Of a stretch of DNA of 64,000 nucleotides, positions 22,481-62,994 are shown one piece after another. The stretch's first letter is position 1. Every line of letters starts with the position of its first letter. Origin of the DNA: a virus; the IMG/VR virus record IMGVR_UViG_2695420938_000010, positions 1,970-65,969 of that record. One strand, given 5' to 3'. A program made the position numbers and the translations under genes. The notes under the pieces are model-generated. The model saw nothing but the letters and a program-made list of their open reading frames with translations. It was not told where the DNA came from and ran no database searches.

Positions 22481-22511
22481 CGCCAGCCCCGATTATCATT
22501 CAAAGTCAGTC

Positions 22512-22530
22512 GCTTATCGAGTTGATAAGC
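22512..22530. promoter_or_regulatory. Perfect palindrome GCTTATC-N5-GATAAGC in the divergent terS / 22591 intergenic region
   Basis: Seen directly; operator role is inferred. Confidence 0.45.
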
Positions 22531-22590
22531 TGGACGCGTGGAGCGAACGTCCGATCACAAGGACGATGTAACTCACCCGGAGCCACCACG

Positions 22591-23756: not shown

Positions 23757-24763
23757 CTCGCCACCTCATCCATCGGCCAGCAATTCAGCTGCCAGAGTTC
23801 GCAGCGCATGCGCCGCGACCAGCGGGACCACTCCGTTGCCACATAGCCGAAGCCGGTCCACCCGGTGGGCCAGCCCATCAGCGCCTCGACGAATAGCGGG
23901 TTCAAGGTCCGGGGCGTGTCGCAGGAACGCCCGCCAGCCATCGGCGTCGCGAGGACCTGGCGGCCAAGCAGGCCGTTCACCGGCGTGTTCGCAAGGCTCG
24001 TCGCCCCGTCCTTGTGATCCCGCGCTGTTGGCGTCATCCACATCCGGCTCACCCCGGTCAGATCGGCCGCCTTGCGCTTGCCCGCACTCGGCTTGTGGCC
24101 ATCGCCCGCCAGCGGCGTCGGCCAGAGGCGCAGCATCTCGGTCCGGTTCCCGCCGCTCGACCGCGTCCCGGAGCAGGCGCGCGGGGTCGGCCAGTTCGCA
24201 GCCTTCTCGGTGGGCGAGGATGAACAGCCGCTCACGCTTGTGGGGCGCACCGACTTCCGCCGCCGTGAAGAGGCCCGCCGCAAGGCGGTAGCCCATGTTG
24301 ACCAGTCCTCCGGCGACTTCGGGAAAGCCGAGGCGGAGATGATGGGCGACATTCTCGAGGAACACGAAGGGCGGCTCGACCTCGCCGACGATGCGGGCGA
24401 CATGCGGCCAGAGGTGGCGCGGGTCGTCCGCCCCACGCCGCTTGCCTGCAACGGAAAACGGCTGGCACGGATAGCCCGCTGTGACGATGTCCACCGCGCC
24501 GCGCCACGGGCGGCCGTCAAAGGTGGCAACGTCGTCCCAGACAGGCGCCGGATCCAGGGCCGTGTCTTCCATCCGCGCCACGAGGATGGCCGCGGCGTAG
24601 GCGTCCCGCTCGACGTGACCCACAGTGCGATATCCGGGGCATGCGAGGTGCAGCCCGAGGTCGAGCCCGCCGGCGCCGGAGCAGAGCGAGAGGCCGAACA
24701 GGCACGCGTCGCCGGCTCCGGCAGGCAGGCCGGAGGAAGGTAGAGCCACGCCATCCACGACAT
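23753..24763 (-). CDS. Overprinted second-frame polypeptide of the C5 methyltransferase (M.EcoHK31I beta-like)
   Basis: Open across the whole MTase gene in another frame. Contains WPTP/WMTP repeats and LNPLFVEALMGWPTGWT. Its ATG overlaps the upstream TGA (TGATG) and its stop overlaps the next ATG (ATGA). Confidence 0.72.
   Translation of the reverse strand: MSWMAWLYLPPACLPEPATRACSASRSAPAPAGSTSGCTSHAPDIALWVTSSGTPTPRPSSWRGWKTRPWIRRLSGTTLPPLTAARGAARWTSSQRAIRASRFPLQASGVGRTTRATSGRMSPASSARSSRPSCSSRMSPIISASAFPKSPEDWSTWATALRRASSRRRKSVRPTSVSGCSSSPTEKAANWPTPRACSGTRSSGGNRTEMLRLWPTPLAGDGHKPSAGKRKAADLTGVSRMWMTPTARDHKDGATSLANTPVNGLLGRQVLATPMAGGRSCDTPRTLNPLFVEALMGWPTGWTGFGYVATEWSRWSRRMRCELWQLNCWPMDEVAR
23766..24758 (-). 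CDS. DNA (cytosine-5) methyltransferase (alpha chain, lacking a clear motif IX)
   Basis: LCSGAGG (I), AGYPCQPFS (IV), FLENV (VI), GAPHKRERLF (VIII), CGNGVV (X); GTG start. Confidence 0.92.
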   Translation of the reverse strand: MDGVALPSSGLPAGAGDACLFGLSLCSGAGGLDLGLHLACPGYRTVGHVERDAYAAAILVARMEDTALDPAPVWDDVATFDGRPWRGAVDIVTAGYPCQPFSVAGKRRGADDPRHLWPHVARIVGEVEPPFVFLENVAHHLRLGFPEVAGGLVNMGYRLAAGLFTAAEVGAPHKRERLFILAHREGCELADPARLLRDAVERREPDRDAAPLADAAGGRWPQAECGQAQGGRSDRGEPDVDDANSAGSQGRGDEPCEHAGERPAWPPGPRDADGWRAFLRHAPDLEPAIRRGADGLAHRVDRLRLCGNGVVPLVAAHALRTLAAELLADG

Positions 24764-26097
24764 CAGGCCGCGTGGGCCCCCTCGGCCGCCGCCGGGGGCT
24801 CGCCCAGCCGCTCGGCCTTCACTTTGGCGAAGGTCCGGCCGTCGCCGTCGAGTATCGCCTCCTTGCCGGTCTCCGCCTGCCAGCGTTCGACGGCGACATC
24901 GACATAGGCGGGGCTGATTTCCATCGCAAAGACGCGGCGGCCGTTTGCCTCGCCCGCCATGATCTGCGAGCCCGAGCCCGAGAACGGCTCGTAGCAGAGT
25001 CCGCCGCGCGCGACGTGCTGGCGCATCGGGATGCCGAAGGCGTCCAGCGGTTTCGGCGTCGGATGGTCGGGCCGCTCGTCCTTGGCGAAGCTCGGCATCT
25101 CCCAGGTCGAGGGCAGCGTTTCCTCGGCCACCTTTGGCGGGCGGTGCGGCCGGCGCCAGCCCATGAAGCAGGGCTCGTGCTTCCACAGGTAGTGCGAGCG
25201 GGTCAGAACACCTCGGTCCTTCACCCAGATGATCTGCTGGTGCACGAAGGCGCCCGCCCTTTCCCAGCACTCTTCCAGCATCGCCTGGCGGCGCGAGGCG
25301 TGCCAGCAATACCAGGCGGCATCCTCGGTGATCGCCTCGGCCACGGCAGCGGCGATGAAGCCGTCATAGAGCTCGGCCCCCTGAGAACTGTCGTCCCAGG
25401 TGGTGCCGTAGGACGCGGACCAATCCTTGTTGCGGGTCGGATGGTTCGAGCCGTCGTAGTCGACGAGATACGGCGGATCGGTGGCGAAGAGGATCGCGCG
25501 CTCACCGTTCATCAGGCGGCGGACATCCTTGTGGTTGGTGGCGTCGCCGCAGAGCAGCCGGTGATCCCCAAGAAGCCACAGATCGCCCGTGCGCGACGCT
25601 GGATTGCGCGGCGGCTCGGGGATGGTCACCGGCGGCACGGAGCCCCCGGCGCCGCCCTCTTCTTCACCGCCCTCGTCCGCGTCGAAGGCCAGCAGCTTGT
25701 CGAGTTCGCCATCGGAGAAGCCGACCAGCGACAGGTCGTAGTCGTCGGCGAGCAGATCCTTCAACTCGGCCGACAGCAGCGCGTCGTCCCACGGCGCCTC
25801 GGTCAGCTTGTTGTCCGCGATCCGGTACGCCCGCCGCTGCGCCTCGCTCAGGTGCCCGAGCACGATCACCGGTGCCTCGGTCAGTCCGAGCTGCGTTGCC
25901 GCCAGCACGCGCCCATGGCCTGCGATCAGTTCGCCGTCCTCGCCGACGAGGCAGGGCACGGTCCAGCCGAACTCGGCCATGCTGGCGGCGATCTTCGCGA
26001 CCTGGTCGGCCCCGTGCACCTTCGCGTTCTTCGCGTAGGGCTGGAGCTTGGCCAGCGGCCAGGTTTCGATCCGCTCGGGGGCGAAGCTCAACGTCAT
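24763..26097 (-). CDS. ParB-like domain fused to an N6A/N4C DNA methyltransferase
   Basis: N-terminal PYAKNAKVH...EFGWTVP...IAGHGR...ADNKL (ParB-like); FATDPPY; HPTPKP; EPFSGSGS. Confidence 0.92.
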   Translation of the reverse strand: MTLSFAPERIETWPLAKLQPYAKNAKVHGADQVAKIAASMAEFGWTVPCLVGEDGELIAGHGRVLAATQLGLTEAPVIVLGHLSEAQRRAYRIADNKLTEAPWDDALLSAELKDLLADDYDLSLVGFSDGELDKLLAFDADEGGEEEGGAGGSVPPVTIPEPPRNPASRTGDLWLLGDHRLLCGDATNHKDVRRLMNGERAILFATDPPYLVDYDGSNHPTRNKDWSASYGTTWDDSSQGAELYDGFIAAAVAEAITEDAAWYCWHASRRQAMLEECWERAGAFVHQQIIWVKDRGVLTRSHYLWKHEPCFMGWRRPHRPPKVAEETLPSTWEMPSFAKDERPDHPTPKPLDAFGIPMRQHVARGGLCYEPFSGSGSQIMAGEANGRRVFAMEISPAYVDVAVERWQAETGKEAILDGDGRTFAKVKAERLGEPPAAAEGAHAA

Positions 26098-26276
26098 GGG
26101 CGTGCGGTTTCCGGTGTTCAGATGGATGCTGGCCGGACTCCGGACACTGGATGCCGCGCTGGACTCCACGCAGGGTCCACCGGCATCCGGGGTATCCGGC
26201 TCGAGGGCCAGCGTTCATTGGGGTTTGCGCGGGTGGCGGGTGGCTCCGGCTTCCGGGTGGCTTCTCAAAAATCCGG

Positions 26277-26342
26277 CCCTGACGCTGGCGAAATGCCGAG
26301 CCAAGCCCGCCAGCATACGCAGGTCGCGGAGAAGGAACCGCG
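26277..26342 (-). other. Putative cos / packaging signal of prophage 1
   Basis: Minus strand reads CGCGGTTCCT-N16-ATGC..GCAT..TCGCCAGCGTCAGGG. The 10-bp and 15-bp blocks are identical to 53316-53380. Confidence 0.55.
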
Positions 26343-26558: not shown

Positions 26559-26987
26559 TTACGCGCCACCGGCCAGCTCGATCACCTTCCGCTTCGACAG
26601 GTTACGGTTGAACCGCCGCCGGTTGAGCCTCAGCGAGATGACGCAGAGCCCGTAGAGCCAGTGCTGGTGCGCGGCCGAGCGCTGGAGACCGACCGTCCAG
26701 CAGATGGTCTTCCACCGCTCGCCATGGGCGCGCATCCAGACGATCTTGCCGTCGACGGGGTCGAGGCACGCGGTCCAGGTCAGCGTCTCCTCCATCCGGC
26801 TGATTGCCTGCGGCGAGGGCAGCACCCGCATGGGCTTGGGCTCCTGGCCCACCTTGTCGGCGAAGCTGTGGATGATCTCGGGCCACGTGCTGAAATAGCC
26901 CTGCCGTCGCGGCTCGGGCAGCCGCTTGAGCACGAAGGCCGCTTCCGCGAGACGGGCCTCGACGAGGGACGGGGTCCACTTATCCAT
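26559..26987 (-). CDS. DUF6362-like protein (probable late-gene regulator)
   Basis: MDKWTPSLVEARLAEAA...STWPEI...PSPQAISRMEETLTW...WKTIC; RBS aaggag. Function inferred from position. Confidence 0.7.
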   Translation of the reverse strand: MDKWTPSLVEARLAEAAFVLKRLPEPRRQGYFSTWPEIIHSFADKVGQEPKPMRVLPSPQAISRMEETLTWTACLDPVDGKIVWMRAHGERWKTICWTVGLQRSAAHQHWLYGLCVISLRLNRRRFNRNLSKRKVIELAGGA

Positions 26988-27180
26988 GGCGCCCTCCTTC
27001 CTCGGAGGGGCGTGGGCCATAGAGCTTTTCGCCGAGCTGGCGGACGAGTTCGCGTTCCGGCCAGGTCAGCCGCGTGTCCTCGAGCGAGACGGCAAGCAGA
27101 CCCTGCTCGCGCCAGCCGTCGCGCTTCACCTGGTCCGGATCCCGGCGCTGGCCGCCGTAGCCCTTGGGATGCCACCTCAT
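26980..27180 (-). CDS. Hypothetical phage protein (66 aa)
   Basis: MRWHPKGYGG...KRDGWREQGLLAV; ATGA overlap with the RuvC-like stop. Confidence 0.7.
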   Translation of the reverse strand: MRWHPKGYGGQRRDPDQVKRDGWREQGLLAVSLEDTRLTWPERELVRQLGEKLYGPRPSEEGGRHG

Positions 27181-50598: not shown

Positions 50599-53048
50599 CG
50601 GCGCAGGGCGATCCTCTCGACTTCAACGGCACGCAGCCCGGCTCGCGCGCACCGACCAACACGCGCATGTCCGTCGCCCAACTGGCCGACATGCTGAACG
50701 ACCGTATCGCGGATCTCGCGCGCGAGTTGCTGGGCGAGCCGAACCGGGAACTTTCCAGCGCGCAGACCCTGCGCTTCGGCGCCAAGGGCAGCGTCGCCGT
50801 GGAAATCGACGGCGCGAACAGGGGCCGCTGGTATGACCACGAGCACGGCGCCGGGGGCGCGGGGCTAGAGCTGATCGGCTATCGGCTGCGCCTGGACGAC
50901 AAGGCGGCGTGGGACTGGGCGCGGTGCTGGCTGGGCGAAGCCCACGCCGGTCCATCCTGGACGACGACACCGACCCCCGCGCCCGCCCGTTCCGCCTCGG
51001 GCGCGGCAAGGGCCAAGGCACCGACGCCTGAGGAACGCGCCGCGAAGGTAGCCGAAATCGTGCGCGGCGCCGAGCCGATTGTCTCGACGCCAGCGGAAGC
51101 CTACCTGCGCCATAGGGGCATCACCGCAACGCCGCCCGACTGCATCCGCTATCGCCGGAACGCCTACGGCCAGTTCGGCGCGATGGTCGCGCTCGCCACC
51201 GATGAGGCGGGCGAGGTGCTGGCGATCCAGCAGGTCTATCTGACGGCCGAGGGGCGAAAGGCCCCGCTCAGGGTGGTCAAGCGCACCAACAAGGCCGTGG
51301 ATGGCTGGGCGGAACGATCCGCCGTTCGGCTGCCGGGGCGCGAGCCGCTGATCCTCTGCGAGGGGGTCGAAACCGCGCTTTCGGCCTGGCAGGCGACGGG
51401 ACAGGAAACCTGGGCCTGCCTCGGCATCTCGAACATCGGCCGCGCGCCTGTGCCCGCGAACGCAGCGGTCATCATCGCCCGCGACGGCGACTTGCCCGGC
51501 AGCAAGGCCGAAGGCCAGATCGTGCGCGCCGCCAGCAACCTCGTGCATCGTGGCGCGACTGTGCTGATCGCCACCCCGCCCGAAGAACAGGACTTCAACG
51601 ATGTGCTGGTCCAGGAAGGCGAAGAGGCCGTGCGCGAGCGCATCGTGGCCGCCGAACGCTTCCGCCCGGAGGAGGCCGACATCGAACGCAAGCGCCTCTC
51701 CATCGGCTCGGATGTGGAGATCGCACGGCGCGTGCGGGAGGACCTGACCGAGCGTTTCGGGCGCATAGTTCATACCGAGGGCGCGTTCTGGCGCTACGGT
51801 GGCAGCCATTGGGAGGCGATCCCCGACCACGAACTGCGCCTGCCTGTCCACGCCTATGACGGCGCGGGGTTCCAGACGCCTGCCGGCGAGCCCTCGAACG
51901 TCAAGCTGACCAAGGGTCGTGTCGACTCGATCCTGAACGAATGTGCCGCGCTCTGCGCCGAGCCGGGATATTTCGACACGCCGCCCTCCGGCATCAACTG
52001 CGCCTCGGGTTTCATCCGCTTCGATGCGGAGGGGACGCCGCGCCTTGAGCCGCATCACCGTGAGCATCGCTGCCGCCACACGCTGCCGGGCCATTGGCAG
52101 CCGGGCGCTTGCGGCGCACCCCCGGTGGGCTCGCTGCTGGCCAGGCTGCTCACCGGCAGCTTCAAGGACGACCCGGACGCCGAGGCGAAATGCGCGCTGC
52201 TCGCGGAGGTCTGCGGCGCGGCGGCGCTGGGCTACGCCACCCGGCTGATGCAGCCGCGCGCGGTGGTTCTGCATGGCAAGACTGCCGAGAATGGCAAGAG
52301 CCAGGTGCTTGAACTCGCCCGCGGTCTCCTGCCCGAAAGCGCGATCTGCTCGGTCCCCGCCTCGAAGATGGGCGACGAGCGGCATGTCATCGGGCTGGTG
52401 GGCAAGCTGCTCAACGCCTCGGACGAGCTGTCACCCGAAGCCATCGCATCCGACACCTTCAAGGCGGTCGTCACCGGCGATCCCATCGAGGGGCGCGACG
52501 TCTACAAGAGCCGGGTCGAGTTCCGCTCCATGGCACAGAACCTGTTCGCCGCGAACCAGCTGCCCAGCTTCAAGGGCGGGGTGGACCGGGGCGTGCAGCG
52601 GCGTCTGCTGCTGATCACCTTCACGCGCTCGATCCCGCTCGAGGAGCGCATCGAGGATATCGGCAAGCGCATCGCGGCCGAGGAGGCAGACCTCCTGCTG
52701 GCGTGGGCGGTGGAGGGCGCATCGCGTTTGATCCGCCAACGCAATTTCGCCATTCCCGAATGCTGCAACAGGGAACTGCTGGAATGGGTGCTCAGCGAGG
52801 ATCCCGTCGCCGCGTGGATCGACGCCTGCGTGAACGTCGTTCCAATCGTCAATGGCGGGCCGCTCGTCACCACCCGCGATGCGCACCTGCACTTCCATAA
52901 CTGGGCGCTTGGGGAAGGCTACAAGCCCGAGAAGCTGCCCGCCATCAACGGCTTCGTGCAGCGCGTCCAGGCCCGCGTGGCCGGCATCCAGTACAAGCGT
53001 ACGAGCAAGGCGCGGTTCTTCGTCGGCCTCACGATGACGCACCGATGA
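50595..53048 (+). CDS. P4/D5-type primase-helicase (TOPRIM + D5_N + SF3 helicase)
   Basis: ILCEGVETALS and IIARDGD (TOPRIM); GINCASG (D5_N); LHGKTAENGKSQ Walker A; LNASDE Walker B; LFAANQLP motif C. Confidence 0.9.
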   Translation: MTAQGDPLDFNGTQPGSRAPTNTRMSVAQLADMLNDRIADLARELLGEPNRELSSAQTLRFGAKGSVAVEIDGANRGRWYDHEHGAGGAGLELIGYRLRLDDKAAWDWARCWLGEAHAGPSWTTTPTPAPARSASGAARAKAPTPEERAAKVAEIVRGAEPIVSTPAEAYLRHRGITATPPDCIRYRRNAYGQFGAMVALATDEAGEVLAIQQVYLTAEGRKAPLRVVKRTNKAVDGWAERSAVRLPGREPLILCEGVETALSAWQATGQETWACLGISNIGRAPVPANAAVIIARDGDLPGSKAEGQIVRAASNLVHRGATVLIATPPEEQDFNDVLVQEGEEAVRERIVAAERFRPEEADIERKRLSIGSDVEIARRVREDLTERFGRIVHTEGAFWRYGGSHWEAIPDHELRLPVHAYDGAGFQTPAGEPSNVKLTKGRVDSILNECAALCAEPGYFDTPPSGINCASGFIRFDAEGTPRLEPHHREHRCRHTLPGHWQPGACGAPPVGSLLARLLTGSFKDDPDAEAKCALLAEVCGAAALGYATRLMQPRAVVLHGKTAENGKSQVLELARGLLPESAICSVPASKMGDERHVIGLVGKLLNASDELSPEAIASDTFKAVVTGDPIEGRDVYKSRVEFRSMAQNLFAANQLPSFKGGVDRGVQRRLLLITFTRSIPLEERIEDIGKRIAAEEADLLLAWAVEGASRLIRQRNFAIPECCNRELLEWVLSEDPVAAWIDACVNVVPIVNGGPLVTTRDAHLHFHNWALGEGYKPEKLPAINGFVQRVQARVAGIQYKRTSKARFFVGLTMTHR

Positions 53049-53258
53049 CGCACCAAAGCGGCTTTTTGACCCCTAACCCATTGAGAGTGTTGAGATGACG
53101 CACTTGGCTTCAACCTTTTTGATAAGGGGGAAATCCCTCTCCCCAATCATCATCCCGTTCCCCCCTATAGAAAAGGATGGCGGGGGAGGTGCGTCATCTC
53201 AACACTTTCAAGGACTTGCGCGCGAAACCCCGTCATTCCTGCGTCACCGTCGCGTCAC
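53033..53258. repeat. GATGACGCAC iteron array, convergent: putative origin of element 2
   Basis: Direct copies at 53033, 53044 and 53094; inverted copy at 53189 (perfect 18-bp IR 53086-53103 / 53189-53206); further GCGTCAC copies near 53241 and 53252. Confidence 0.75.
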
Positions 53259-53315
53259 TCAGAGGGCCGAGCCCGCCCTCCCGAGGTGCGGTCAAGCCGG
53301 AAGGATCGGGAAATC

Positions 53316-53380
53316 CGCGGTTCCTCCTGCGCCGAATGTCATGCGGGGACGCGCAGCGCATTGCGTCGCCAGCGTCAGGG
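53316..53380 (+). other. Putative cos / packaging signal of element 2
   Basis: CGCGGTTCCT...ATGCG-N11-CGCAT...TCGCCAGCGTCAGGG immediately before terS; matches 26277-26342. Confidence 0.6.
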
Positions 53381-53387
53381 GGCAGAA

Positions 53388-53897
53388 ATGACTAAACTCG
53401 ACAGACATGAGACCAAGACCGCCTTCGCCGCCCGCGTCGGGCTGACCAAAGGGCGCATCTCGCAGCTGGTGGCCGAGGGGCTGCCGGTGCGCTCGGACGG
53501 ACGCATCGACGTGGCCGAGGGGCTCGCCTGGATCGAGACGAACCTCGATCCGGGCCGGCGCTACAAGGGCGGTGCGCCCACGGCGACGACCCGCACCGCC
53601 ACGCTGGCCGAGGCCAAGCGGCTGCACGAGATCGTCAAGGTCCAGCGCGCCCGGCTGGCCTTCGAGCGCGAGCAGGGCAAGCTGATCGACGCCGACGAGG
53701 CGCGGCGGACGGTATTCGCGCGCGCCCGTGCCGAACGCGACGCGCATCTGGCGTGGGTGCAACGGACGGCACCCCTGCTGGCAGCCGAACTCGGCGCCGA
53801 CCCCCGCGCCACCTTCGCCGCGCTCGACCGGATGATGCGGGAGCATCTCGAACACCTGGCCGACCTTCCGCTGGGGAGCTTTGGCGATGGTGCCTGA
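53388..53897 (+). CDS. terS: Terminase small subunit (Nu1-like)
   Basis: ETKTAFAARVGLTKGRISQLVAEGLP..DGRID HTH; coiled coil; the RAERDA..W segment parallels the terS of prophage 1. Confidence 0.82.
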   Translation: MTKLDRHETKTAFAARVGLTKGRISQLVAEGLPVRSDGRIDVAEGLAWIETNLDPGRRYKGGAPTATTRTATLAEAKRLHEIVKVQRARLAFEREQGKLIDADEARRTVFARARAERDAHLAWVQRTAPLLAAELGADPRATFAALDRMMREHLEHLADLPLGSFGDGA

Positions 53898-55698
53898 CAT
53901 CGACCTCGCCTGGCGGCGCGGCATCCGCCCCGAACCGCCGGTCCCTGTCTCGGACTGGGCCGACCGGCACCGCATCCTGCCTCCGACCTCGGCCGAGCCT
54001 GGCCGCTGGCGCACGGACCGCACGCCCTATCTGCGCGAGGTGATGGACGCACTCTCGACCGCCAGCCCCTACGAGCGCGTCGTGCTGATGAAGGGCGCGC
54101 AGACCGGCGGTTCGGAGGCCGGACTGAACTGGCTCGGCTACATCATCCAGAACGCGCCCGGCATCGCCATGCTGGTCATGCCGTCGCTCGACATGGTGCG
54201 CCGGAACACCACCGTCCGCATCGACCCGCTGATCGAGGCCACGCCCGCGCTGCGTGATCTGGTCGCCTCGCCCCGCTCCCGCGACGCCGGGAACAGCCTG
54301 TTCCGCAAGTCCTTCCCCGGCGGCCAGCTGGTGATGACCGGCGCCAACTCGGCCGTCGGCCTGCGCTCGACACCGGTGCGTTATCTCTTTCTCGATGAGG
54401 TGGACGGCTATCCCGGCGACGCCGACGGCGAGGGCGATCCCGTCGATCTAGCCATCCAGCGCACCGCGACCTTCCGCGGGCGGCGCAAGATCTACATGGT
54501 CTCCACGCCCACGCTGAAGGGCCACTCCCGCATCGAGGCGGCCTTCGAGCAGAGCGACCGGCGCTTGTACCACGTCCCCTGCCTGCATTGCGGCGACATG
54601 GCCCCGATCACCTGGGCGCGCATCCGCTGGCCCGAGGGGCGGCGCGACCAGGCGCATCTGGTCTGCGAGGCCTGCGGTGGCATCCATCACGAGCACGAGA
54701 AGCCCCGCCTGCTGGCTGCGGGTGAATGGCGCGCGACCGCCGAGGGCGACGGCCGCACTACAGGCTTCCACCTCTCCGCGCTCTATTCCCCGTGGGAGAC
54801 CTGGGCCGAGATCGCCGCCGAACACGGCCGCGTTCGCAAGGATCCCGCCCGCCTTCAGGTCTGGGTCAACACCAAGCTGGGCGAGTCTTGGGAGGACCAG
54901 GCGGGCGACACCGTTCCGGCCGACCCGCTGATGGCCCGCCGCGAGGACTGGGGCGAGGCTCTGCCCGCCTCCGTCGCCGTGCTGACTGCCGGCGTCGATG
55001 TGCAGGGCGACCGGATCGAGGTGCAGATCCTCGGCTGGGGCCGCGACGAGGAGGCTTGGGTGATCGACTACCGCGTGCTCTGGGGCGACCCGTCAGGCCC
55101 GCGCCTCTGGGCCGACCTCGACATGGTGCTGCAGGCGACGTTCCCGCATCCCGCGGGGCTCGACCTGCCGGTGCGCGCCGCCGCCATCGACACCGGCGGC
55201 CACCACACCAAGATGGCCTACGAGTTCTGCCGCACCCGCCTCGCGCGCCGCATCTGGGCGATCAAGGGCCGCGGCGGACCCGGGATCCCCGTCTGGCCGC
55301 GCCGCCCGACGCGCACGAACAAGGGCAAGATCCCGCTCTTTATCGTCGGCGTGGACGCGGTGAAGGACTCCGTCTACGCCCGCCTGCGCCTCACCGAGCC
55401 CGGCCCCGGCGCGATCCACTTCCCCCGTCGCCTCGACGCCGACTATTTCCGCCAGCTGACCGCCGAGCGCGTCGTCACCCGCTTCGAGCGCGGCCGCCCT
55501 ATCCGCTCCTGGCAACCCAAGCGCGACGGCGAGCGCAACGAGGCCCTCGACACCTTCGTCTACGCCCACGCCGCCCTGCACGGGCTCATCAGCATGGGCC
55601 TCAGGCTGAACGAGGAGGTGGAAGGGGTTGCGGTCACGCCGACGCCGACGGATGCGGCGGCTGCGGGGGTGATCCGGTCGGCGTGGCTACGGCGCTGA
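53881..55698 (+). CDS. terL: Terminase large subunit, lambda gpA family
   Basis: VVLMKGAQTGGSE, RYLFLDEVDGYP, VSTPT, YHVPCLHCG, RNEALDTFVYA. Confidence 0.95.
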   Translation: MAMVPDIDLAWRRGIRPEPPVPVSDWADRHRILPPTSAEPGRWRTDRTPYLREVMDALSTASPYERVVLMKGAQTGGSEAGLNWLGYIIQNAPGIAMLVMPSLDMVRRNTTVRIDPLIEATPALRDLVASPRSRDAGNSLFRKSFPGGQLVMTGANSAVGLRSTPVRYLFLDEVDGYPGDADGEGDPVDLAIQRTATFRGRRKIYMVSTPTLKGHSRIEAAFEQSDRRLYHVPCLHCGDMAPITWARIRWPEGRRDQAHLVCEACGGIHHEHEKPRLLAAGEWRATAEGDGRTTGFHLSALYSPWETWAEIAAEHGRVRKDPARLQVWVNTKLGESWEDQAGDTVPADPLMARREDWGEALPASVAVLTAGVDVQGDRIEVQILGWGRDEEAWVIDYRVLWGDPSGPRLWADLDMVLQATFPHPAGLDLPVRAAAIDTGGHHTKMAYEFCRTRLARRIWAIKGRGGPGIPVWPRRPTRTNKGKIPLFIVGVDAVKDSVYARLRLTEPGPGAIHFPRRLDADYFRQLTAERVVTRFERGRPIRSWQPKRDGERNEALDTFVYAHAALHGLISMGLRLNEEVEGVAVTPTPTDAAAAGVIRSAWLRR

Positions 55699-55734: not shown

Positions 55735-56982
55735 CTATCGCTTCGAGCCGAACCACCTGTAGTGGTAATTCACGCAAACATCGTCGAGCGAATGGGTCAG
55801 GGTGATTTTTTGCCCATTCAACGGATCACCCATCGCCTTTGATCGGATTACGTAGTCTCCCCCAACCTTTTTAATTCTCAGGATTCCACGGTCAAATTGC
55901 AGATGATGATTGGGGCACAGAACTAGCATATTACTTGCCTTATCGGGGCCACTATGCGGCTCACCCAGGCCCTTGATATGGGCGGCCTCCGAGTAATACC
56001 GATCCTCAGAAATTTGAAGTTTAGTTCCACAAAATTGGCATGTATTGTCATAATGCTGCTTTAGAGCCGCGGCCTTTTTTCGATTTCGCTTCTGCTCCTG
56101 CCGTTCGACGGTCCGCCGCTCGACGACCTCATCTGACTCCTCTTGCTCTAGCCACTCGAGGCCTTCCTCCTCCGGGATCTCAGGTGCTGGCTTCGGCGGC
56201 GGCGGGGTTGTCGGCGTAAGAGCAGTCTTTGCCTCACGGAAGCGTTCGATGCCGCCGACGGAGCCGTAGAGATCTGCCAGGTCACCCGCCTGAGCCAAGG
56301 CAAACCCTCGGGTTACCCCCAAGAGCTTGTAAAGCTCGTCCGAGTCTATGAGGTCAACGAGGCTCGCTCTGTCAGAAGGTCCACCGTCAAGGATGTGTCG
56401 ATCCCAGGCCAGAAACAGTGCAGAGGCTATCCACTGCTCGGCCTGAGCGTTAATCACTGGCAGTGACGTCGGCCAAAACTCGCATAATTCATAGAGATGG
56501 CGGTAGTTGTTGCGGCACTTCACTCGCACGTCCAACTGGGCGTCCATCCGGTCCGTGATGAAGGGGTCGAGAGAGGCGTCGGATAGCGCGGAGGAGCGCC
56601 AAACGCCAGACTGCCACAATCGCTCCCGGACGAACTCATTGGCCCACATGGCCGGACGACTCACAACCCTCTGACCGGTTCCTACCCGGTTGAGGTGCAG
56701 CGCAAAGAGGGCAAGTCTATCGAACCGAATTGAGTGGGGTCGCTCGATCGCTTGGAAGACCAACTCGTCGACTGACATGCGGCCCGCTTTGTTGTGCAGA
56801 AAAAAGTTGACCGGAATGAGGCTTAGTGAGGCGTCCAGCCCAGAGTCTTCACGAAACCGGTCGCGCGGAACAGTGGCCAGCGTGTCCTGAAACCCGGCAC
56901 GTATGACGATGTGAAGCTTGCGCAGCCCGGTTCCATGCCACGCAAAGTTCTTCGAGAAGCTGCCCGGAGCGTGCTTCACCAT
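55735..56982 (-). CDS. HNH endonuclease with a ~290-aa uncharacterised N-terminal region
   Basis: C-terminal CQFCG...EAAHIK...DKASNMLVLCPNHHLQFDRG, the HNH_2 / McrA-type Zn-HNH pattern. Confidence 0.88.
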   Translation of the reverse strand: MVKHAPGSFSKNFAWHGTGLRKLHIVIRAGFQDTLATVPRDRFREDSGLDASLSLIPVNFFLHNKAGRMSVDELVFQAIERPHSIRFDRLALFALHLNRVGTGQRVVSRPAMWANEFVRERLWQSGVWRSSALSDASLDPFITDRMDAQLDVRVKCRNNYRHLYELCEFWPTSLPVINAQAEQWIASALFLAWDRHILDGGPSDRASLVDLIDSDELYKLLGVTRGFALAQAGDLADLYGSVGGIERFREAKTALTPTTPPPPKPAPEIPEEEGLEWLEQEESDEVVERRTVERQEQKRNRKKAAALKQHYDNTCQFCGTKLQISEDRYYSEAAHIKGLGEPHSGPDKASNMLVLCPNHHLQFDRGILRIKKVGGDYVIRSKAMGDPLNGQKITLTHSLDDVCVNYHYRWFGSKR

Positions 56983-57033
56983 CTATATCTTGCCTCAGAG
57001 ATGCTTAACCTTTAGCACATATAGAAACGGAAA

Positions 57034-57684
57034 ATGAGCAGGGGCACAATGGTCAATCCTTCCCAAGAACTTCTCGCAACAGCGAACGGGCGCAAATTCC
57101 AGACCATCCTGGCTGACCCGCCGTGGCGGTTCACAAACCGGACTGGCAAGATGGCACCGGAGCATCGACGGCTGTCGAGGTACGGGACCATGAGTCTGCC
57201 AGAGATCAAGGCTCTGCCCGTTGCTGAGATAGTTCAGGAACCGGCTCACCTCTATCTCTGGGTGCCGAATGCGCTGCTTCCAGAAGGCATCGAAGTACTC
57301 CGCGCATGGGGCTTCGAATACAAGTCGAACATTGTCTGGCACAAGATTCGAAAGGACGGCGGATCAGATGGCCGAGGAGTGGGCTTCTACTTTCGAAATG
57401 TCACGGAGCTTGTGCTGTTTGGGGTGCGGGGAAAAAACGCGCGAACACTAGCCCCCGGACGGAGGCAGGTGAATCTCATTGCGTCCCAGAAGCGCGAGCA
57501 TAGCCGGAAGCCGGATGAACTCTACGACGTGATCGAGGCATGCAGTCGAGGACCTTTTCTTGAGATGTTCGCACGTGACACTCGAAAAGGTTGGACGGGC
57601 TGGGGCAATCAAGCCGAGAATTACGAGATCACTTGGGACACGTACGCACACCATAGCCGTGTGACTGCAAGTGCGGCTGAGTGA
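57034..57684 (+). CDS. MT-A70 family N6-adenine methyltransferase
   Basis: TILADPPW, HLYLWVPN, WGFEYKS, HSRKP, LEMFAR. Confidence 0.92.
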   Translation: MSRGTMVNPSQELLATANGRKFQTILADPPWRFTNRTGKMAPEHRRLSRYGTMSLPEIKALPVAEIVQEPAHLYLWVPNALLPEGIEVLRAWGFEYKSNIVWHKIRKDGGSDGRGVGFYFRNVTELVLFGVRGKNARTLAPGRRQVNLIASQKREHSRKPDELYDVIEACSRGPFLEMFARDTRKGWTGWGNQAENYEITWDTYAHHSRVTASAAE

Positions 57685-57753
57685 ACTTGCCGATAGGCGC
57701 CCTCGAAGGCGTCGCTTCAATTGGCCATCCGACATCGCGATGATCGAACAGGG

Positions 57754-57780
57754 GCAGCGACCCGACGTCCGGGTCGCTGC
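57754..57780. terminator. Hairpin between the convergent MT-A70 and AIPR genes
   Basis: gcagcgacccg-acgtc-cgggtcgctgc, a perfect 11-bp stem followed by a T-rich run. Confidence 0.7.
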
Positions 57781-57793
57781 GTAGCGGTTTTTC

Positions 57794-58990
57794 TTACGCT
57801 GACTGAGACTTCATGACCGAAGCAATGGTGTCGGTGTAGATGCTGAGCGCATCGTATGCAGCTTCGCTACGGCCCATGTAGGCGACCTGCCGGTCCAAGG
57901 CACGATACTGCTTCACTGCACGGTCGATCATCTGGTCAGCATCGAAAAGGCTGGGCTTCTCAATGGTCCACTTCCCGTCCTTCTGTACGACGAAAGCCGA
58001 CAGCGCAGACATGATCGGGAAGAGCAGACCAGGCGCGACCCAGATGATCTTGCCGTCAGGGCCACGCCGAACGGGGCGCCCACCCTTGGGTGCGCCGCCG
58101 TTGGGGCTCTTGCTCTTCTCGTGCAGATGATGACCGTTCCAGGCGGGATGCGTCTCCCAGTTGCGGTACTCCTTGATCGCCGCCACAGCGATCTGAACTG
58201 TGAAGTCATACCGCTTCTTCGCTTCGGGATCAGTCTTGCGCGACTGCGCCCATTCCCCGAATTCCTTCAAGCACTTACCCGCCTGCTTGTAGGGCATGTT
58301 GTGAGCTTTCGTGCCCGACGCCTCGAGCTCTGCCGGCATCAGTGTCCGGCACCACTGCAGAACCGCCTGCGCGGACAGTCCCTCTGTGTCGGTCTCGTTC
58401 ATCTGAAGAGTCTCACCTGGCAACCCGGCTTCGATTGCCGCGCGGAGATCGTCAAGATAACCGCGCGCACCGGCCTGAGAAACGCTCTTCACCGACGTGG
58501 CCGTGTTGCGGGCGATAGCAACTTCCACGATCTGCTCGTGCTGAGGCTCCATGATGATCTCGGCGCGGACCGGGAAGTCGGTGTTATCGTCGTCTTCGAG
58601 ACTGGCGAAATACCGCTTCAGTTCACCTTGGGTCTGCGCGCCATTGATGATGCTGGCGTTCGTCAGATGCGCCATCCGCTTCGAGTCGTCGATCTTGCAG
58701 TCGGTGCAGGTGATCGTCACACCGGAATTCCGGTTGATGAACCGATCCGGCTGCTCAAGGATCGTAGCCTCAATTTCCTTGTGGACGGCGTTGCGTTTCG
58801 AGTCCTTGTGCTCGGCGATGTAGGTCCGCAGGTTGTCCTGCGTACCAAGCTTGGTCACCTCGCGGGCGCTGACGTTCGCGAACCAAGTCTGAACGCCATT
58901 GGCCTTTTCCTCGGGGGAGGTCAGGTTCTTGATCGAATTGTAATGGAGGGTAAAAGTCGTCGACCCCGCCGACGGGTTGTCGTAAGCCAT
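57794..58990 (-). CDS. AIPR-family protein (abortive infection phage resistance)
   Basis: DNLRTYI, FINRNSGVTI, SIINGAQT, AIARNT. Confidence 0.85.
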   Translation of the reverse strand: MAYDNPSAGSTTFTLHYNSIKNLTSPEEKANGVQTWFANVSAREVTKLGTQDNLRTYIAEHKDSKRNAVHKEIEATILEQPDRFINRNSGVTITCTDCKIDDSKRMAHLTNASIINGAQTQGELKRYFASLEDDDNTDFPVRAEIIMEPQHEQIVEVAIARNTATSVKSVSQAGARGYLDDLRAAIEAGLPGETLQMNETDTEGLSAQAVLQWCRTLMPAELEASGTKAHNMPYKQAGKCLKEFGEWAQSRKTDPEAKKRYDFTVQIAVAAIKEYRNWETHPAWNGHHLHEKSKSPNGGAPKGGRPVRRGPDGKIIWVAPGLLFPIMSALSAFVVQKDGKWTIEKPSLFDADQMIDRAVKQYRALDRQVAYMGRSEAAYDALSIYTDTIASVMKSQSA

Positions 58991-62649: not shown

Positions 62650-62994
62650 ATGAAGAACTACCTCCAGAACGGCCACATCGTCCGCGTCACGACGCCAGCG
62701 GGCGGTATCGCCTCGGGCGACGCGCTGATCGTCGGCAGCATCTTCGGCGTCGCCGCCTGGTCCGCGGCCGAGGGCGACCCGGTCGAGCTCGCCACCACCG
62801 GAGTGTTCCAGCTGCCGAAAGCCAGCGCCGCAGTGCTGACCGTTGGCGCGCGTGTGGCGTGGGACAACACGGCCAAGGAGGTGGCCACTCCGGCGGCCGG
62901 ACGCTTCCCCATCGGCGTGGCTGTCGAGGCGGCTGGGAACGGCATCACCAGCGTCGCCGTACGGCTGGATGGGATCGCGACGGCGGCTGCATAA
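62650..62994 (+). CDS. DUF2190 capsid decoration protein
   Basis: MKNYLQNG...IASGDALIVGSIFGVA...TGVFQLPK...VAWDN...IGVAVEAA; paralog of 15691-16026. Confidence 0.88.
   Translation: MKNYLQNGHIVRVTTPAGGIASGDALIVGSIFGVAAWSAAEGDPVELATTGVFQLPKASAAVLTVGARVAWDNTAKEVATPAAGRFPIGVAVEAAGNGITSVAVRLDGIATAAA

Follow-up and report, generated by a model that had tools for sequence, protein, structure and literature searches.

The stretch of viral DNA analysed here (the window, 64,000 nt in full) holds two elements, a prophage (element 1) and a putative satellite (element 2). Each carries one copy of a short block that begins with the same 10-mer and ends with the same 15-mer. With 30–60 nt between them, these two words match the window exactly twice, at 26277–26342 on the minus strand (element 1, 66 nt) and at 53316–53380 on the plus strand (element 2, 65 nt), as an earlier note made from the sequence alone had described. 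The composite pattern had 0 matches in 100 dinucleotide shuffles of the window, and a genome-wide pattern search found no third copy of the block in the whole 3.86-Mb genome. The ATGC...GCAT dyads reported in the same note are present at 53341–53361 in element 2 and at 26316–26293 in element 1, at distances of 15 nt and 16 nt, respectively, from the end of the heptamer GGTTCCT. The element 2 block adjoins terS, as had also been said, and ends 8 nt 5′ of the terS ATG at 53388. The element 1 block, on whose position the note was silent, does not lie beside terS: it precedes a ParB-methyltransferase gene, and terS follows 3.8 kb further on.

In element 1, all on the minus strand, the block is flanked by a DUF6362 gene (27020–26559), the last gene of the virion map, and by the ParB-methyltransferase gene (26169–24763), the first. 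A second methylase gene and two opposite-strand genes separate the latter from terS (22480–21923, identified by its phrog_57 match) and terL (21972–19978). In element 2, terS (53388–53897, plus strand; phrog_57 small terminase, 6e-31) and terL (53881–55698, plus strand; GpA_ATPase, 1e-93; GpA_nuclease, 1e-99) directly follow the block, and the head operon stops at 62994 with a cement protein gene, facing a convergent gene. With a terminase, a portal and a capsid of its own and no tail genes, element 2 has the gene content of a cf-PICI. The HNH–terS–terL set of the HK97 kind was not found: the terminase of element 2 is of the gpA/Nu1 type, its portal is of the lambda family, and its sole HNH protein is encoded by a reverse-strand cargo gene (55735–56982).

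This gene belongs to a lower-GC, reverse-strand cargo region (55735–58990) between terL and the portal gene of element 2, which encodes the HNH_2 protein (415 aa) and an AIPR abortive-infection protein; an MT-A70 methyltransferase gene (57034–57684) lies within the region on the plus strand. The distance from terL to the portal gene varies from 4.5 to 7.6 kb among loci of the element 2 type, which makes this a variable cargo slot.

The earlier note had called both terminases gpA-type, and GpA_ATPase and GpA_nuclease domains were indeed found in both TerL proteins. The TerS proteins of both elements match phrog_57 (Nu1-like), so that each element has a terminase of the lambda cos type, and both encode a lambda-family portal. 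Between the two elements, TerS is 35% and TerL 47% identical.

Aligning the block across related prophages, a check proposed in the earlier note, brought out a large family in two classes with fixed gene context. The family occurs in more than 200 viral and bacterial contigs, mostly from Rhodobacterales. Three pattern scans of viral contigs, each of which left one part of the motif free, returned 91, more than 119 and 79 loci, and among species genomes at least 36 sites were confirmed as true by the profile, with Paracoccus, Rhodovulum, Gemmobacter, Jannaschia, Ruegeria, Tabrizicola, Devosia and other alphaproteobacteria as hosts. Class B, the element 1 type, comprises prophages of ~40 kb with the order replication genes, DUF6362, block, ParB-methylase; the DUF6362/ParB-methylase pair flanks the block in most of 145 loci. 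Here terS lies 0.9–7.3 kb downstream of the block with opposite-strand genes in between, a layout that counts against a packaging site but is the same in the cultured phage RcKemmy (see below). Class A, the element 2 type, comprises tail-less elements of 14–18 kb with the order primase, block, terS in 45 loci, terS always standing at +70. Two further class A contigs match element 2 in content (portal, protease–capsid fusion, cement protein) and end 9–10 kb past the block, and no tail genes were present in the class A elements examined, namely element 2 and these two contigs. Because the contigs are short and carry head genes without tail genes, class A elements are, by gene content, probably tail-less capsid-forming satellites.

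Class A elements lose their homology to one another exactly at the heptamer. Beyond its left edge, we found at least three unrelated flanks (for example in L004, L009 and L048), which go with different primase types and replication modules. By these comparisons, the block is also a mosaic joint between replication and packaging modules in class A.

We assessed the conservation of each part of the motif among sites found without requiring that part. Of 56 unique sites, 55 have the heptamer (T or G at position 3), which starts at a fixed distance, 21–22 nt, upstream of a TATG. In the 15-mer block, most positions are at least 90% conserved (114 unique sites). TATG itself is conserved, as are positions 1, 2, 6, 7 and 11 of the next 11 nt and the base that follows them; within these 11 nt, the left half is conserved and positions 8–10 are variable. 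Element 2 departs from this pattern in that a C replaces the nearly invariant first T of TATG, which counts against its being a cos site. The earlier note had stressed that the centres of the two copies diverge. In the window they do look unrelated, but family-wide this did not hold, with the 41 nt from TATG to the 15-mer aligning gap-free between the classes; the two centres are variants of one site.

A search with the element 1 TerL by tblastn led to cultured phages of the Rhodobacter capsulatus RcC cluster, with 62–63% identity (RcKemmy, RcDormio), and the element 1 DUF6362 protein finds the last gene of RcC-cluster phages. The linear RcKemmy record opens with the ParB-like gene (gene 1), continues with three reverse genes and then terS and terL, and closes with the DUF6362 homologue. 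This is the class B gene order, with the same pair of genes flanking the physical ends. Both the RcKemmy and the RcDormio record start with a G-rich run and have ...TATGCG as their last bases. When their ends are joined, the whole motif is rebuilt: heptamer, TATG, centre, a block like the 15-mer, a T-run and three direct repeats. In RcOceanus and RcKai, whose records are rotated to the start of the ParB gene, the motif is intact and lies 169 nt before the record end. A class B profile built from 129 unique sites runs across the record junctions of RcKemmy (E 9e-7) and RcDormio (E 1.6e-6), and it also finds element 2 at E 3e-7; the score of the alignment between RcKemmy and the consensus was reached by 0 of 2000 shuffles. 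Searches of either block against GenBank phages by blastn gave no match, as is understandable in hindsight, the motif being split by the ends of the relatives' linear records.

The authors of the Rc-phage study reported defined ends with 11-base 5′ overhangs, from points at which all reads stop (PMC8601537). The mapped ends of RcKemmy and RcDormio fall inside the motif, and through them the sequence family has members with complementary overhangs at this site. We took the overhang to be the first 11 bases of the Rc records, as in the lambda record. The paper leaves start or end unstated; were it placed at the record end instead, both nicks would lie 11 nt further upstream, still inside the motif. 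The Rc phages thus share with the window the motif, the flanking genes, the T-run, the direct repeats and 11-base 5′ overhangs inside the motif. They differ in that TerL is only 62–63% identical, the heptamer is one C short and the repeat word is of the GGTTTCCA type. The Rc-phage paper gives the type of end without a description of the site (PMC8601537).

Taken with the shared TerL and gene order, the ends of RcKemmy and RcDormio inside the motif are the decisive support for reading both copies as lambda-type cos sites, and we consider it very probable that one serves the element 1 prophage and the other the element 2 satellite. The proposal of the earlier note that these are cosQ/cosN-like sites is thereby borne out, through read-mapped virion ends of cultured relatives. 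Since termini were mapped in the Rc relatives, the nick positions in the window and in class A rest on homology, and the positions below are predictions.

In element 1 (minus strand), the cosQ-like heptamer, read directly and conserved in the family, is at 26333–26339. Gap-free alignment to the RcKemmy and RcDormio ends places a predicted 11-nt 5′ cohesive end at 26301–26311, with nicks expected between 26312 and 26311 and between 26301 and 26300. The conserved 15-mer at 26277–26291 is, by its position, a putative counterpart of the lambda I2 segment. A candidate cosB follows at 26238–26272 (bp 40–74 from the nick), consisting of the T-run and then GGAAGCCA-type direct repeats with an 11-nt period; the direct repeats proper span 26266–26238, bp 46–74 from the nick.

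In element 2 (plus strand), the heptamer GGTTCCT, again read directly, is at 53319–53325, where lambda has GGGTCCT at the same position. A putative cosN follows at 53341–53361, with the dyad arms ATGCG (53341–53345) and CGCAT (53357–53361). Aligned to the same phage ends, the predicted 11-nt 5′ cohesive end is 53346–53356, with homology placing the nicks at 53345/53346 on the top strand and 53356/53357 on the bottom strand. The conserved 15-mer to the right of cosN (53366–53380) is likened to I2 by its position only (PMC4669245).

The symmetry of the site is consistent with this placement of the nicks. The dyad ATGYG-11-CGCAT occurs in every one of the 48 class A sites, and its arms bracket exactly the predicted 11-nt overhang, an arrangement that two symmetrically placed nuclease subunits would need and that gives independent support for the nick positions. 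Class B sites are only partly symmetric around the nicks.

The candidate cosB differs between the classes. In class B it would be the lineage-specific direct repeats at bp 46–66. Repeat pairs at +73/+84 from cosQ occur in 54–58 of 125 sites, so that about half have the 11-nt period; the word that is repeated differs from lineage to lineage, and its copies in a given element vary in concert. RcKemmy has three such repeats in the same place. A repeat search beside class A sites found no repeats of the cosB type, which counts against a cos function. What class A does have are invariant first codons of terS: the stretch at bp 46–57 from the nick (53391–53402, plus strand, in element 2) is identical at every nucleotide in 48 class A sequences, even at third codon positions and in rare codons. 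We infer that this stretch, which overlaps the start of terS and takes the position of lambda R3, is the candidate class A cosB and a candidate R3-like TerS site.

These observations suggest the following mechanism. Each gpA-type TerL, positioned by its own Nu1-like TerS, would make two nicks 11 nt apart after TATGYK, leaving 11-base G-rich 5′ cohesive ends, and packaging would proceed in the direction of the ParB or terS gene, with both copies presumably active. The heptamer, 27–28 nt upstream of the nick, would act like cosQ, as a termination signal, and the 15-mer to the right of the nicks like the I2 segment of lambda. Lineage-specific sequences at ~bp 45–70 would form cosB, at which the small terminase binds and through which initiation becomes specific to each element. 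The earlier note had further expected the divergent centres to give different cohesive ends. The predicted overhangs of the two elements in the window do differ, with 6 of 11 positions unlike. Such a difference is not universal, since in two isolate genomes with co-resident class A and class B elements (L061/L148 and L070/L147) the overhangs differ at only 1 of 11.

Two further kinds of putative terminus were considered and set aside. Contigs from four metagenomes stop near 26298–26305, where the centre variants diverge, so that these stops are best read as a branch in the assembly graph. In the viral collection, contigs that end near the motif do so at various positions and not at one base, so that their ends are uninformative.

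The earlier note had named a non-coding RNA or a late promoter as the outcomes that would speak against a packaging site; RNA and promoter scans gave no support to either. The shared block could be a late promoter, or a site for an activator or antiterminator, through which the late regulator of the phage switches on the packaging operon of the satellite, as P2 Ogr does for P4. Such a role would suit the position of the block, which opens a rightward gene block in both elements and in class B follows the DUF6362 gene, annotated as helix-turn-helix in the Rc records. However, promoter and terminator scans found no sigma-70-like promoter or intrinsic terminator in either region, and comparison by hand with the sigma-54 and ECF consensus sequences showed no fit to both classes. 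Class B moreover has opposite-strand genes and a separate conserved promoter-like region between the block and terS. The mapped virion ends inside the motif explain the block without a promoter role, although an overlapping promoter could still exist. We regard this explanation as very unlikely.

A structured RNA leader that controls expression of terS or of the ParB-methylase gene is less probable still. Hairpins can be drawn, some C-to-T changes would keep G–U pairs on the sense strand, and the class A block does lie in the 5′ leader of terS. Yet an Rfam scan of the whole window gave no match, the best helices fall in different registers in the two classes, and in folds of the alignments 0 of 12 and 0 of 19 pairs were changed on both sides. 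We also rejected a stem around the heptamer, as its two flanks vary independently, with no co-variation. Equally improbable is a conserved joint between gene modules, that is, a recombination boundary that has no packaging function of its own: the end of class A homology at the heptamer and the left flanks with different replication modules would fit it, but a dyad with a fixed 11-nt spacing and an overlap with mapped virion ends are not expected of joints, and the joint more simply follows from the block being a cos site.

Read as a cos site, the block resembles that of lambda in several respects. The order of sub-sites is the same (cosQ, cosN, I2 and, in class B, the candidate cosB repeats). 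The lambda heptamer GGGTCCT is one base from GGTTCCT, and the exact lambda heptamer occurs in some family members. Lambda and this family also have in common a G-rich 5′ overhang, repeats at about the R3 position, a gpA TerL, a Nu1-like TerS and a lambda-family portal; R3 of lambda is at bp 48–65 from the nick (PMC9026076). In the site itself, lambda has 30 nt from the heptamer start to the top-strand nick against 27–28 nt here, and an overhang of 12 nt against 11 nt. Class B differs further from lambda in the methylase and opposite-strand genes that separate the site from terS. In local alignment, lambda cos and the family consensus are not significantly alike: 89–123 of 2000 shuffles scored as well, and nhmmer gave E 3.7. 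What carries the comparison with lambda is therefore the heptamer, together with the geometry and the protein families, and the claim is one of shared architecture and protein families, not of proven sequence homology. In these terms, the block is a real, widespread and fairly ordinary lambda-like packaging signal.

In lambda-like phages, cosQ is highly conserved, cosB varies between phages and sets the specificity of initiation, and termination requires cosQ, cosN and the I2 segment, not a matching cosB (PMC4669245). The pattern of conservation in our family matches that described by Feiss and colleagues for lambda-like cos sites (PMC4669245). Satellites of the PICI type in E. coli have cosQ and cosN near-identical to those of lambda-like helpers, without a matching cosB (PMC9026076); EcCICFT073 cos1, used with Rpp, thus has helper-like cosQ and cosN at the same spacing and no matching cosB, similar to the arrangement here (PMC9026076, PMC6739421). 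However, E. coli PICIs borrow the helper terminase via Rpp or a private TerS, whereas element 2 has its own TerS, TerL and head genes. In this it resembles cf-PICIs, which are tail-less islands with an integrase, a primase and their own terminase, portal, protease and capsid (bioRxiv 10.1101/2022.09.08.507074). The cf-PICIs described so far package with an HK97-type HNH–terS–terL set, and those of proteobacteria put the head genes first (bioRxiv 10.1101/2022.09.08.507074); element 2 has a lambda-type set, with terS and terL first and no HNH gene beside terS.

For the cross-recognition between the two terminases that the earlier note had thought possible, lambda genetics would predict cosB-specific initiation and possibly a shared termination dependent on cosQ and cosN (PMC4669245). 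Prophage and satellite might then have a common cosQ–cosN–I2 core and differ in cosB, so that each terminase starts only on its own DNA and could finish at the site of the other. The block would in that case be both a shared end-point and a joint for the exchange of modules, in a separate lineage of lambda-type capsid-forming satellites in Rhodobacterales. We put this forward tentatively, as a possibility that is rather doubtful. If true, it would explain why satellite homology stops exactly at the heptamer, and the lambda-type capsid-forming lineage would be distinct from the described HK97-type cf-PICIs.

The two sites indicate that a principle described for lambda-like coliphages and E. coli islands, with shared cutting and termination signals and a private recognition signal, holds far outside the enterics as well, and for a satellite that owns its whole packaging motor. 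The family also yields base-precise, testable predictions of genome ends for widespread temperate phages of Rhodobacterales and related alphaproteobacteria, and likewise for tail-less satellites with their own lambda-type terminase. In these prophages, the block would mark the true left and right ends of the virion maps. Packaging tools for Rhodobacter and Paracoccus could also use it as a cos cassette.

Several features in the vicinity of the blocks and in the wider family were observed besides. A Rhodospirillaceae MAG (L352:3520–3870) has a tandem pair of cos-like cores spaced by ~270 nt. The first core resembles class A and retains a remnant of the terS start, the second resembles class B, and tblastn detected no terminase genes in the vicinity. 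The product of the ParB-methyltransferase gene (24763–26169, minus strand) is a ParB-like nuclease domain fused to an N6/N4 methyltransferase, and in class B its gene is always the first after cos. At the same position, the Rc phages encode a ParB-like protein without the methylase part. For the DUF6362 protein (26559–27020, minus strand), the Rc-phage homologue carries the annotation of a helix-turn-helix DNA-binding protein. The gene has a fixed place next to cos, so that its product may act at the DNA end or in late control.

Directly 5′ of element 1 terS, between it and the two opposite-strand genes, lies a conserved non-coding block (22481–22590) with a 6-nt inverted repeat (palindrome 22529–22513). 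Its conservation extends to 56 class B loci; it resembles a divergent promoter/operator and seems to be where the terminase operon is actually controlled. Upstream of the element 2 block, we observed a 69-nt imperfect inverted repeat (53035–53257, 71% complementary) and two copies of a CGGGAA-type word with 10–11-nt spacing (53297–53314). These repeats are shared by one class A sub-group and go with a Prim2-type replication module, of which they are possibly the replication origin.
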